A program made the translations under genes and the position numbers. Source: Candidatus Heimdallarchaeota archaeon (lineage in GTDB: Archaea; Asgardarchaeota; Heimdallarchaeia; JABLTI01). Taken from it: DNA of 64,000 nt. Shown here piece after piece: positions 33,716 through 37,822 of the stretch (its first letter is position 1; each line of letters opens with the position of its first letter). The DNA is taken from the NCBI GenBank assembly GCA_018238155.1, contig JABCTZ010000036.1:256001-320000 (forward strand), written 5' to 3'. The notes beneath the pieces were generated by a model that saw nothing but the letters and a program-made list of their open reading frames with translations, ran no database searches and had not been told where the DNA came from.

Positions 33716-34018
33716 TTATTTATTATCAAGTACCAGTGGAAAAACAGTTGCTAGTGCATTGTAAATTGTTTGATTAACATAGCTATCGGCATCTGAAAGT
33801 ATTAACTCAAGTACTTTTTGAAGAACAGTTCCATCATTATCCTTGACCGTATCTTCACTGATAATTGCTGATAATGTTTGATGGGACGTGTGAACATATT
33901 TTCCTTCCTCAACTTTCTGATAACCAGCACTAACTAAAAGTTTGTGGATTTTCTTCAAATCTTTATCCAATTGTGGAGTTCCGATTCTAAGAATCATTGG
34001 TCTTTGTATTTCACCCAT
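33716..34018 (-). CDS. Hypothetical protein, closely coupled to the Arf-like gene
   Basis: 100-aa ORF 12 nt downstream of the Arf stop; GGAG SD overlaps that stop. Confidence 0.65.
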   Translation of the reverse strand: MGEIQRPMILRIGTPQLDKDLKKIHKLLVSAGYQKVEEGKYVHTSHQTLSAIISEDTVKDNDGTVLQKVLELILSDADSYVNQTIYNALATVFPLVLDNK

Positions 34019-34030
34019 TTTATTTTTCTC

Positions 34031-34570
34031 CTATAGTTTATCTAATTCAATAACAATCCATTTTATTGCTTCTTCTACACCTATTCCTTTAGTTGCTACA
34101 GTTGGTTGTATGTGCCAGCTGCGAGCACCCATTTTTTCCAGATTATCTAAATTACAAGCTTTGATAATTTCTTCTAATTGCATACATCCTTCAATATCTT
34201 GTTTATTTGCTATGACCAATAAGGGAACATCTGGAAATTGTGGATCAATCAGAACAGTCCAAAGCTCATTTTTTGCTTCTTCAATTCTTTCACGATCAGA
34301 TGAATCGATAACGAATATAATTGCACTTGCACCTCGCATTAATGTGCCCCATAAATTACGAAAATGCATTTGTCCTCCAAGATCAAAAACACTTAGATTG
34401 ACATTCTGTCTTTGTAAGACTTCTACATTGACACCTATCGTTGGAAGCGTTTCAATACTTTTCTCAAATCTAAGGAAATTTAACATGGTAGTTTTGCCAG
34501 CAGAATCGAGTCCTACAACTGCGATTTTAAATTGCTTTTTTTGTCGGAATAGTTTCTGTAAGAAGCTCAA
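34031..34570 (-). CDS. Arf-family small GTPase
   Basis: N-terminal amphipathic helix SFLQKLF, G1 GLDSAGKT, PTIG, DLGGQ, IFVIDSSDRERIEEA, NKQD, C-terminal G.EEAIKWI. Confidence 0.92.
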   Translation of the reverse strand: MSFLQKLFRQKKQFKIAVVGLDSAGKTTMLNFLRFEKSIETLPTIGVNVEVLQRQNVNLSVFDLGGQMHFRNLWGTLMRGASAIIFVIDSSDRERIEEAKNELWTVLIDPQFPDVPLLVIANKQDIEGCMQLEEIIKACNLDNLEKMGARSWHIQPTVATKGIGVEEAIKWIVIELDKL

Positions 34571-34743
34571 TGAAATCTTCCTCTATATTATGTCAATAAT
34601 ATTTTTTACTAATGATTACTTTTATTATGTTATAACAATTCTACTTTGTCATTCACTATTTCCAAATATAATTAATAAATCCATCTAAACCGCCATTCTT
34701 GAACGAATTTCTAAGAAAGGTGAAATATATTACCTCTAGCAAT

Positions 34744-35493
34744 TCAAATAAGATTTACTGTAATTTCTATTGTATCTAGTCTTTCATCGAACTTTACGAT
34801 ACCTTTGTTATCTAGATTTCTAAGTGCCTTCAAAATAATAACTGGAGGTGTTTTTGAAACTGATTTCTTCAGTTCATCTAAACCCATTGCTTGTTTGCGA
34901 TATGCAAGCGTTGAAAGTATATCTACTTCAGGTATATCGATACGAACTTCCTTTAAGAGGAAATCCAATATGGGACTTACTTGAACATTTTGTTCTTCTT
35001 CTTTTTTAATTTCATCTAATTGTTGTTGAATTTGTACAATTTGATTATTCATACGGTTTTGAGTAACCTCTTTTTCTGAGGTTTTAGCTTTAATGTTCTC
35101 TTTCAATAAAATAATTTGATTTTCTGTTGAGGAGAGTTCTGTTTTTAACTTGTTGAGATTCTTTTCTATTTGTTCCATTTCTAAGGTCAATTTATTACTC
35201 TTTTCTTGTTCTTCTGAAATATTTAATTTAGCACGTTCAGTTTGTTCATTTAATGTGTTAATATCACTTAGTAAACTCTTCTTTTCATTTTGAAGTTGTA
35301 TTTCATCTCGTTTATGATCATTGAGATTCTTTTCTAAATTTTGAGCATTTTGTTCTGCTTTTTCTAGATGAGAGAGTGCTTCTTTGATTTCTAGAAGAGT
35401 TGCTTCAATTTTTTGATGAATGTTTTGGTCCAATTTTTCTAAGCGTTCCTTTTCGGTTAAAATGCTTCTCTTTAAACTAACTAAGTCTGTCAT
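34744..35493 (-). CDS. Coiled-coil protein with C-terminal winged-helix domain
   Basis: ~170-aa heptad-rich region, then EVDILSTLAY...LDELKKSV...ILKALRNLDNKGIVKFD (wHTH pattern). Confidence 0.75.
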   Translation of the reverse strand: MTDLVSLKRSILTEKERLEKLDQNIHQKIEATLLEIKEALSHLEKAEQNAQNLEKNLNDHKRDEIQLQNEKKSLLSDINTLNEQTERAKLNISEEQEKSNKLTLEMEQIEKNLNKLKTELSSTENQIILLKENIKAKTSEKEVTQNRMNNQIVQIQQQLDEIKKEEEQNVQVSPILDFLLKEVRIDIPEVDILSTLAYRKQAMGLDELKKSVSKTPPVIILKALRNLDNKGIVKFDERLDTIEITVNLI

Positions 35494-35505
35494 TCAGTAT
35501 ACCTC

Positions 35506-36252
35506 CTAAAATTTTAAACTCCTATCAATGGTAATCGCACCTGATGATGAATCATATGTAATAAGTTTCCTTTTCATCAAACCTTCTAGTGTTTTTATTA
35601 TTAATTCATCTGAAATCCCGGTAACTTTTGAAATGGTACTTAAATCAGTATTTTTTCGACCTTCAAGTGAATTAATAATTTTTAATTCATTAAACTCAAC
35701 ATGATTTTTCTTTATGAGATATTCAAGAGCCATTCTTTCCCCTTTTATTCTTCTAAGGGTATCTTTTTTCGCTTCAATTTTCTTTTCAAACTCAAGGATC
35801 TTTTTTTCACTTGAGCTAACAATTTCTACAATATTATTAGATATTTTTTTGTTCTCTTCTGAAAAGTTTGAATATTCATCTTTAGCTCCTGCTTGCTTGT
35901 TTTTCGTTTCATTTAATTCTGAATTTATTTCTCTAAGTCGTGTTTCTAATTTAGCTCTATTGTCAACAAGTTCTGATAAATTTGATTGTGCTCCGGATAA
36001 TAGTGTTTCATTTGAACTCTTCTCATCTTTTAGTGTTGTAACCTCTCGAGTAAGAGCATCATTAGTTGATAAATAGTTAGAAATTTCATCTTTACGTTTC
36101 TTTTCAAAATTAATCAGATCCTCTATTGGATTTTTTAAATCTTCTAATCCTTTCTTAGTAACTTTAATTTTTTCTTCAAAATTACTGTTTAATTCTTGAA
36201 TTGTGAGCTCTGATTTTTTAATTGACGATTGTACTTCTGATATATCTGTCAT
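35506..36252 (-). CDS. Coiled-coil protein with C-terminal winged-helix domain (paralogue of neighbour)
   Basis: Heptad-rich region, then ELKIINSL...LSTISKVTGISDELIIKTLEGLMKRKLITYD. ATG 36252 follows GGAG. Confidence 0.75.
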   Translation of the reverse strand: MTDISEVQSSIKKSELTIQELNSNFEEKIKVTKKGLEDLKNPIEDLINFEKKRKDEISNYLSTNDALTREVTTLKDEKSSNETLLSGAQSNLSELVDNRAKLETRLREINSELNETKNKQAGAKDEYSNFSEENKKISNNIVEIVSSSEKKILEFEKKIEAKKDTLRRIKGERMALEYLIKKNHVEFNELKIINSLEGRKNTDLSTISKVTGISDELIIKTLEGLMKRKLITYDSSSGAITIDRSLKF

Positions 36253-36436
36253 AAATTGATTACACTCCACTTCTTTTATATACTTTTTTTCTGAAAAAGA
36301 TTTCGTTTCAATTAATACTTAGTTAATGATATTAATTAATTAGAACTATTCACTAATAAATTAATTTGGTGAAAGATTGAAGAAAAAAGTGAAAATTGAT
36401 TGAAATTTGTTATTTCAATCTTTTAGAGAGCTGCTT

Positions 36437-37822
36437 TTAATCCATATATACATGAGATGCAACTCGTTCTATTACTTCAAGCATTGCAGGTGTATGTTTT
36501 GCTCTAATTGCGTTAACAAAATCATCAGATGGCAAATTTAGTTTCTTAATTTTAGCCCAATCTTGAGAAATCTTCTCTATGAGCGAAACACGGTTAATCA
36601 ATAATGATACACATTCATTATGTTTCTGTTTGGTCATTGTTTGAATGATGTCATTTAAATAAATTGATGTCAGACCTTGGGAAACTTTCTTTTTATCCAT
36701 ATCTAGAATAACTTCATTTGAATAATAAGATAATAAATCTCGATTAACTCTGATAATATCTGCATCTCTAGGATGAATAAAATCTGCAGTATAATTTACT
36801 ATTCTAAGTTCTCTCTCAGGGGCAAAACATTGGATGGTATCAAGAATCATATTTAGTAAAACTTGATTTTTATCTGATTCTGGATCCAATACGATTAGTA
36901 GTAATTTTCTGCTAACTATTGCATCAAAAACTTGATCCATGCCTTTTTTAATTTGTTTAAGTAAGAATGGCATGTTTCCTTTGTCAGTATTTCTTTTTGT
37001 AACTTCTACCCCAAGAGTTCTTTGTGTATCTGGGGTTGAAGTTTGTGGTTGTTGTGTTGTAGTTGATGTTTGAATAGTAGTTTCTACAGGAGAGCTAACA
37101 GGTGCAGGTGCTGGAGTTGGTGTTGCACTTAAAGTAGCTGCTGCTGCAGGGGGAGGAGAATCTGAAAAAGATTTAACTGAATAATAAACTTTATTCCCCA
37201 TTTTTGTGGTGTAAAGAAAACCAGCATTCAATATTTCTTGGATTGTTGCTACAGCTTGTTGAGCTGAACTTTCAGTCATAGCTATGACTTCTTGAAAAGA
37301 TGCAATTTTAGCATCTAAAATTGAACGAGCTGTTTTTTGTAATCTTTGAGGAAGTTCCATAACACTAAGAGTATCTAATTCTCTTCTACTCCCAGACTTG
37401 GTCATTATTCTATTCTCAAAAGCACTTCGTAATTGGTCTAATTTAGCTACAAATCCCTGGAAAACTGAAACATCATCACCTTGCCAGTTCTCAACATAAT
37501 CTTGAGGGAAGATTGCATAGAAAAGTGTTTCAAGTTCAGGAAGTAAAATATCAAGTATTCCTTCTTCATTTGGATCAGAACTAACAACAAAAAATGCCGG
37601 ACCTACTTGCTTGTAAGTTAGTTTTAAATCACCAATCAATTCTTCATTTTGTTGTCCAATACTAACTTTGTTTAAAATGGAATCAATGATTGGTTGAAAA
37701 TCTCCCAAAGAATTTCCTTTTAATTGTGCTTGACCTGGTTCATAATTTCTGTAAACTAACGGAAAATTATTCTTTAAAATTAATACTCGTTTTATCAAAA
37801 CTTTCTTCTCCGAATAAAGCAA
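36437..37822 (-). CDS. Longin-like + wHTH + Pro/Thr linker + DENN/folliculin-like multidomain protein
   Basis: N-terminal longin-like pattern (VLIL..G/FPLVYR...FFVVSSD...F...F); wHTH (LPQRLQKTA...GFLYTTKMGNKVYY); PAPAP/TTTQQP linker; C-terminal DENN-like core. The start may be TTG 37798. Confidence 0.6.
   Translation of the reverse strand: MLYSEKKVLIKRVLILKNNFPLVYRNYEPGQAQLKGNSLGDFQPIIDSILNKVSIGQQNEELIGDLKLTYKQVGPAFFVVSSDPNEEGILDILLPELETLFYAIFPQDYVENWQGDDVSVFQGFVAKLDQLRSAFENRIMTKSGSRRELDTLSVMELPQRLQKTARSILDAKIASFQEVIAMTESSAQQAVATIQEILNAGFLYTTKMGNKVYYSVKSFSDSPPPAAAATLSATPTPAPAPVSSPVETTIQTSTTTQQPQTSTPDTQRTLGVEVTKRNTDKGNMPFLLKQIKKGMDQVFDAIVSRKLLLIVLDPESDKNQVLLNMILDTIQCFAPERELRIVNYTADFIHPRDADIIRVNRDLLSYYSNEVILDMDKKKVSQGLTSIYLNDIIQTMTKQKHNECVSLLINRVSLIEKISQDWAKIKKLNLPSDDFVNAIRAKHTPAMLEVIERVASHVYMD

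Follow-up and report, generated by a model that had tools for sequence, protein, structure and literature searches.

We analyzed a window of 64,000 nt (C15:256001-320000) from the genome of a Candidatus Heimdallarchaeota archaeon (4.08 Mb in 46 contigs, G+C ~31%). Positions 33716-37822 of this window are filled by five consecutive open reading frames (ORFs), all on the minus strand. In the direction of reading they encode a protein with longin, winged-helix and DENN-like domains (longin-DENN protein), two coiled-coil/winged-helix proteins (CC1 and CC2), an Arf GTPase and, last, a small protein of 100 amino acids (aa). A reading of the sequence that preceded this work (the original prediction) had taken these genes to encode the regulator, the rod-like effector and the switch of one trafficking module. 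On balance, we lean towards another explanation, in which the region is put together, as a mosaic, from three separate expression units that differ in evolutionary age and became neighbors in one Heimdallarchaeial family (Gerdarchaeales). The first unit would be a monocistronic, folliculin/SMCR8-like longin-winged helix-DENN gene with its own terminator-like signal. The second would be a bicistronic, Asgard-wide pair of ancient paralogs, CC1 and CC2, and the third a bicistronic unit of Arf and the 100-aa protein behind a conserved upstream element.

The boundaries of these units were sought in the intergenic sequences. A scan for sigma-70 and intrinsic-terminator consensus sequences gave counts as in shuffled sequences; note that such a scan is not designed for archaea and misses AT-rich hairpins. 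We therefore used cross-genome comparison (nine genomes of the genus) and folding. On the 3' side of the longin-DENN stop codon, a hairpin of 4-9 bp followed by a run of 5-10 T was present in 9/9 genomes. The position of the hairpin is kept while the stem sequences differ, the pattern of a conserved terminator. The spacer between CC2 and Arf (173 nt) has diverged except for a near-invariant 17-nt element, TTAGATGGATTTATTAA, which occurs nowhere else in the genome when 0-1 mismatch is allowed. This element is probably the Arf promoter (B recognition element/TATA-like) or a regulator site; as a promoter, it would give a 5' leader of ~75 nt. The CC1-CC2 and Arf-small protein spacers are 12 nt long each and carry a Shine-Dalgarno-like GGAG(G) in all genomes. 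The hairpin and T-run after the longin-DENN gene and TTAGATGGATTTATTAA before the Arf gene thus point to three transcription units for the five genes.

We next considered how far the arrangement is conserved. Among the 83 genomes sampled from the class Heimdallarchaeia, orthologs of the longin-DENN protein (full length), of the Arf (E ≤ 1e-35) and of the small protein were found only in a single family of two genera, here called f1. The match of the Arf to GerdArfR1, described below, places f1 in Gerdarchaeales; the source names on related proteins are Heimdallarchaeota and Hodarchaeales. The order of the five genes is kept in 11 genomes of the two genera. However, the entire 13-gene block from RadA to an amidohydrolase is collinear in f1, flanking housekeeping genes included, and the conservation of the five genes therefore carries no specific signal. 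Where it could be applied, synteny across Asgard genomes, which the original prediction had proposed as its check, spoke against it: linkage was kept in f1 only, with the flanks conserved as well. A paralogous copy of the arrangement was also absent from the genome when the other DENN-like, CC-like and Arf paralogs were checked.

The CC pair, by comparison, was present in 192 of 251 sampled Asgard genomes (E ≤ 1e-10). In all 35 loci examined (window 34744-36252; L085-L098; L128-L147) the two genes are in tandem, co-directional and in the same order. In a maximum-likelihood tree, a single branch splits the first-gene from the second-gene copies (support 95/90), so that the duplication and the A-then-B order are older than the class. 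The neighbors of the pair vary by family, being ABC ATPases, Hsp20 with a radical-SAM protein, or a subtilase, and none was found to be shared. No Arf or DENN gene lies near the pair in the 34 loci outside f1, and a small GTPase adjoins it in only one of these. There, in genome G022 of another Heimdallarchaeial family, a 188-aa GTPase of the Ras family is encoded directly downstream of the CC pair (L089:6997-9146, G022 C7). Within 4 kb of the pair, no GTPase, DENN or longin match was found in 20/20 loci from other classes. These distributions are what would be expected of an old, self-contained, Asgard-wide heterodimer gene pair whose adjacency to Arf is specific to one family. Because the pairing is constant and the neighbors change, CC1 and CC2 may well serve a housekeeping task of their own, probably in nucleic-acid or protein anchoring, rather than act as Arf-specific effectors.

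CC1 and CC2 are collinear over their length with 23% identity (E 7e-5). A profile of their C-terminal domain (the last ~80 residues) matched winged helices in the PDB, namely those of MarR (9.6e-6 and 2.4e-5), Lrs14, TFE and Lrp/AsnC. In Pfam searches with the CC family, MarR_2 and MarR were hit by 5/30 members and TrmB by four. Each of the two ~250-aa proteins is a coiled coil with a MarR/TrmB-type winged helix at its C-terminus. Their joint product is most likely a parallel heterodimeric coiled-coil rod of ~170 residues bearing two MarR-like winged-helix heads. Profiles of full length retrieved only the coiled coils of myosin, SMC and tropomyosin from the PDB, and an ESM Atlas feature search with CC2 returned only unnamed Asgard clusters. 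A literature search found no paper on the pair, and sources that name these proteins call them 'hypothetical protein'. We also considered divergent ESCRT-III proteins with a C-terminal winged helix (CdvB-like); this assignment was set aside, as no CC family member matched Snf7 among the top families and two canonical Snf7 genes are found elsewhere in the genome. Like the GRIP-domain golgins, which are Arf/Arl effectors, the CC proteins carry a small globular domain at the C-terminal end of a long coiled coil; here, their genes adjoin that of an Arf. In contrast to the golgins, this domain is a winged helix of the MarR/TrmB type, and the pair is kept across Asgard without an adjacent GTPase.

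The features of the region are listed in Table 1. Note that the raw ORF calls differ from two of the entries. The longin-DENN ORF extends up to 37822, but translation more likely starts at the TTG at 37798, because orthologs open with MIKRV or VIKRI at this point and three of them have stop codons just upstream. Likewise, the CC1 ORF spans 35506-36270, with the ATG at 36252 being the likelier start because it yields MTD, as in CC2 and all orthologs. Depending on this choice, the gap between longin-DENN and CC1 measures 166 or 184 nt. On the same strand, Kae1 (122 nt after the small protein) and Sua5 follow downstream of the five genes. Upstream lies a divergent cluster encoding an energy-coupling factor (ECF) transporter, MobB and a molybdopterin-domain protein.

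Table 1. Genes and intergenic elements between positions 33716 and 37822 of the window.
Feature	Position	Strand	Description
Small protein	33716-34018	minus	100 aa; starts 12 nt after the Arf stop codon, behind GGAG
Arf GTPase	34031-34570	minus	179 aa; Pfam Arf E 1.5e-52; PDB 8OUN E 8.9e-99
Conserved 17-nt element TTAGATGGATTTATTAA	34672-34688	minus	~105 nt upstream of the Arf start; from cross-genome comparison
CC2 ('B-type' paralog, second gene of the pair)	34744-35493	minus	249 aa; starts 12 nt after CC1, behind GGAGG
CC1 ('A-type', first gene of the pair)	35506-36252	minus	Coiled coil of ~170 aa and C-terminal MarR/TrmB-like winged helix
Terminator-like hairpin and T6	36383-36420 (hairpin 36398-36420; T6 36383-36388)	minus	Just 3' of the longin-DENN stop codon
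Longin/winged-helix/linker/DENN-like protein	36437-37798	minus	453 aa from TTG; AlphaFold2 model

The Arf protein covers positions 3-171 of the 174 in the Pfam Arf profile (PF00025) with 178.1 bits (cut-off 22.3), and is the top scorer on this profile among the roughly 48-52 small-GTPase genes of the genome. It aligns end to end with GerdArfR1, an Arf-related GTPase of Gerdarchaeales (PDB 8OUN/8OUM), at ~83% identity by our count. On the strength of this alignment, the window protein is a true Arf and the ortholog of GerdArfR1. Across f1, Arf orthologs are 77-92% identical. The motifs GLDSAGKT, DLGGQ (with the catalytic Gln) and NKQD are invariant in an alignment of 11 orthologs. The N-terminus, SFLQKLFRQKK, is conserved among them and has no Gly2; it is predicted to form an amphipathic helix, which in the Arf family is coupled to an interswitch toggle. 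GerdArfR1 likewise lacks Gly2, and its N-terminal amphipathic helix was seen in the crystal; in yeast the protein binds membranes in a GTP-dependent and helix-dependent manner (Vargova et al., bioRxiv 10.1101/2024.02.28.582541). Crystals of the GDP form (8OUN) and the GTP form (8OUM) were reported in the same work (later Nat Microbiol 2025). The window Arf resembles GerdArfR1 in its predicted amphipathic N-terminus without Gly2 and in all G motifs; GerdArfR1 stems from another species. The text of the preprint holds no neighborhood analysis, and genomic context was apparently not treated (bioRxiv 10.1101/2024.02.28.582541).

Orthologs of the small protein encoded after the Arf are present in all 11 other f1 genomes with 63-90% identity, and directly follow the Arf wherever the contig permits. 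The 12-nt spacing between the two genes is kept across both genera. Bicistronic pairs with such coupled spacing usually act together. We infer that the co-translated small protein is the likeliest direct partner of the Arf, and that the two form the best-supported functional pair of the region. An AlphaFold2 model (predicted local distance difference test score (pLDDT) 85) shows a beta-alpha-beta4-alpha topology. Fold searches with this model gave no convincing match (best Foldseek E 0.02, best VIA Z 8.9), and an ESM Atlas feature search gave no usable one. The closest Atlas cluster carries a 'MoaD_arch' domain (TM 0.63/0.73). KA1 domains and a segment of DEPDC5, which scored VIA Z 6-8, were set aside as sharing a common alpha/beta arrangement. 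A paralog with 30% identity occurs in sister genomes (L044-L054) between genes for Cys-rich proteins of ~440 aa and ~405 aa, not near a GTPase. This paralog was not found in the assembly of the genome studied here.

The longin-DENN protein is more remote in sequence from known families. In Pfam and NCBIfam searches, four of the five proteins of the region gave only coiled-coil noise; the longin-DENN protein had no match, and no Folliculin, DENN, uDENN or Avl9 model reached E ≤ 1. Just 36 relatives were retrieved when 1.8 billion representatives were searched exhaustively with phmmer. An AlphaFold2 model, computed from 38 aligned relatives, has a pLDDT of 84. In it, residues 1-130 form a longin domain and residues 143-207 a winged helix; a disordered linker rich in Pro, Ala and Thr (212-261) leads to a DENN-like part with an alpha/beta and a helical portion (273-453). 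Foldseek with the full-length model retrieved DENND1A/B, folliculin, FNIP2, DENND10 and SMCR8. In VIA comparisons, the longin part scored Z 14.3 against the longin domain of VAMP7 (117 residues, root-mean-square deviation (rmsd) 2.4) and Z 13.7 against Sec22b. The DENN part scored Z 14.2 against the C-terminal DENN domain of folliculin (3v42_B; 172 residues, rmsd 3.2), Z 13.5 against DENND10 and Z 11.4 against SMCR8 706-911, while the full-length model reached Z 13.8 with FLCN and Z 13.1 with SMCR8. The nearest Atlas cluster is from Heimdallarchaeota, with PF11704 (Folliculin) on 23% of its members. The modeled protein is thus a longin, winged-helix and DENN fold closest to folliculin and SMCR8. 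A PDB search with the single sequence of the winged-helix segment returned nothing meaningful, and the winged-helix call derives from the AlphaFold2 topology and from TrmB-carrying neighbors in the Atlas. Architectures of this kind are already known, as Liu et al. (bioRxiv 10.1101/2020.10.19.343400) described Asgard DENN proteins and Heimdallarchaeial proteins with the longin and DENN order of folliculin.

Folliculin/FNIP and SMCR8/C9orf72 are GTPase-activating protein (GAP) complexes for RagC and Arf1, and DENND1 proteins are guanine nucleotide exchange factors for Rabs. The window protein shares with folliculin/FNIP, SMCR8/C9orf72 and DENND1 an N-terminal longin and a C-terminal DENN fold. 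It differs from folliculin and SMCR8 in having a winged helix and a disordered, Pro/Ala/Thr-rich linker of 50 residues between the lobes, and its sequence identity to them is ~10%, without a Pfam Folliculin or DENN match. A GP motif, located at or shortly before the beginning of the second longin strand, and next to it a catalytic arginine finger of the longin domain are the signature of GAP-type longins (FLCN, NPRL2, SMCR8, C9orf72; Traffic 2025, PMC12290439). In 12 orthologs and three paralogs of the window protein, P13 of the longin is invariant and is preceded by F, L, H, Q, V, K, T or S, never by G. Residues 63-110, where the finger would be expected by analogy with folliculin, contain no conserved arginine. 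Arginines are conserved only in strand 2 (R17) and in a GSRR loop (136-139). Because the glycine before the conserved proline and a conserved arginine in 63-110 are both missing, an exchange factor or scaffold may be a better description of this protein than a folliculin-type GAP. When the longin-DENN protein and the Arf were put into a complex prediction, the score was 0.00, below the mark (controls not run), which gives no verdict on binding in either direction.

Conservation of the longin-DENN protein is highest in the stretch DQLRSAFENRIMTK-GSRR (residues 120-140), at the junction of longin and winged helix. Its G-x-R-[RK] loop has low model confidence and is also kept in paralogs of 770 aa. 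The same genome encodes a 767-aa paralog that likewise consists of longin, winged helix and DENN (G000 C39:182739-185039) and a 394-aa protein of winged helix and DENN (G000 C6:75733-76914). Hodarchaeales have proteins of ~365 aa with winged helix and DENN but without this longin. Given these three kinds of protein, winged helix and DENN seem to be the conserved core of the family. The inserted winged helix is a conserved variation. The longin-DENN protein is one of a small family of Asgard proteins with DENN-like domains, which are probably platforms or regulators for small GTPases.

The genome holds ~52 small GTPases, nine genes with DENN-like domains and 18 longin-like genes. For three of the nine DENN-like genes, a small GTPase is encoded no more than 2 kb away, as compared to 6.6% for random positions. 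Two of these are tightly coupled. In one case, a 328-aa DENN-like gene is followed after 15 nt by a 202-aa GTPase of the Ras family (L149:2382-3992; G000 C4:33881-35491). In the other, a DENN-like gene of 565 aa is met convergently by genes for a 153-aa protein of no assigned family and a Ras-like GTPase of 228 aa (L148:1140-4031, G000 C4). An Asgard operon of DENN, Rab-like GTPase and LAMTOR1-like genes was predicted by Liu et al. (bioRxiv 10.1101/2020.10.19.343400). The window locus, like this operon, encodes a DENN-like protein near a small GTPase, as do the two tight pairs. It differs in that the GTPase is an Arf and not Rab-like, in that 1.9 kb with two genes and a terminator-like signal separate longin-DENN from Arf, and in that no Roadblock or LAMTOR-like gene is seen.

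These data bear on whether the longin-DENN protein and the Arf work together. In such a pair, the longin-DENN protein would be a lineage-specific exchange factor, GAP subunit or scaffold of the Arf, with or without the small protein, and the CC pair would merely lie between them. We regard this explanation as possible but doubtful. The excess of DENN-like genes close to small GTPases indicates that the proximity of longin-DENN and Arf may be functional, the predicted operon of Liu et al. sets a precedent, and the question has been raised in the literature of ArfR or Rag GTPases as partners of the folliculin/SMCR8-type longins of Asgard archaea (Traffic 2025, PMC12290439). Longin-DENN, Arf and small protein do occur in the same genome family, but any lineage-specific set of genes shares such a distribution, and related genomes are not independent. 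Moreover, both tight DENN-GTPase pairs of the genome involve Ras/Rab-like GTPases, not Arf; longin-DENN and Arf are set apart by two unrelated genes and a terminator-like signal; and an arginine finger was not found where expected. Cooperation of all five genes, with a DENN-like regulator, an Arf switch, a small co-factor and the CC heterodimer as a golgin-like effector of Arf-GTP, appears improbable to us. The genes are adjacent and co-directional in a conserved order, and coiled-coil tethers are recruited by Arf and Arl GTPases in eukaryotes. However, the flanking housekeeping genes are conserved to the same extent, the CC pair is phylum-wide and, in the 34 loci outside f1, without a nearby Arf or DENN gene, sequence signals point to three transcription units, and the CC heads resemble the DNA-binding winged helices of MarR, Lrs14 and TFE rather than the Arf-binding domains of the GRIP or GAT type. 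The opposite extreme, in which no unit interacts with another and Arf and the small protein merely share a transcript, is equally hard to accept. With the numbers of small GTPase, DENN-like and longin-like genes given above, some adjacency is expected by chance, and the paralog of the small protein adjoins no GTPase; yet the constant 12-nt spacing of Arf and small protein over two genera, with the sequence identities of both, argues against it.

Several observations weigh against the mosaic of three units that we favor. The DENN-GTPase proximity just discussed is one, and the Ras-like GTPase directly downstream of the CC pair in G022 is another, as it hints at a recurrent link between CC proteins and GTPases; in G014, a congener with the same wider locus, this adjacency is absent. 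In addition, the terminator and promoter calls are based on sequence pattern, and both read-through transcription and post-translational partnership would be compatible with separate promoters. A functional link between the first and the third unit could exist within the mosaic. As to the original prediction, its five minus-strand genes are all present, with the gaps of ~170-185 nt and the tight coupling of Arf and small protein that it described. Its assignments of a longin-winged helix-turn-helix-DENN-like protein, of a paralogous coiled-coil pair and of an Arf were borne out. Its comparison with longin-DENN proteins as regulators of small GTPases is a fair analogy in view of the published Asgard DENN/Rab-like operon and the two tight pairs. 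The joining of regulator, effector and switch in one module is not supported for the CC pair, whereas the link between longin-DENN and Arf stays plausible.

In vitro and on expression in yeast, Asgard Arf GTPases behave as membrane switches under nucleotide control. Zhu et al. 2025 (PMC11914678) state that the native regulators and effectors of these GTPases are unknown, and the GTPases served by the folliculin-like longins of Asgard archaea are likewise asked for (Traffic 2025, PMC12290439). At the locus described here, the Arf gene has those of a folliculin-like longin-DENN protein and of a co-translated small protein as neighbors. Because its ortholog GerdArfR1 has already been purified and crystallized, direct biochemical tests are practical. 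We rate as unlikely a scheme in which the GerdArfR1-type Arf has the longin-winged helix-DENN protein as its native regulator (an exchange factor or a GAP subunit) and the 100-aa protein as effector or chaperone, with the CC rod recruited to the membrane by Arf-GTP. If true, regulator, small effector or chaperone and recruited rod at one locus would represent a working archaeal forerunner of Arf-driven tethering. Given the weak evidence that the genes form a joint module, we value the locus as a short list of candidate Arf partners rather than as a trafficking finding. The CC pair may merit study of its own as a conserved Asgard heterodimer.

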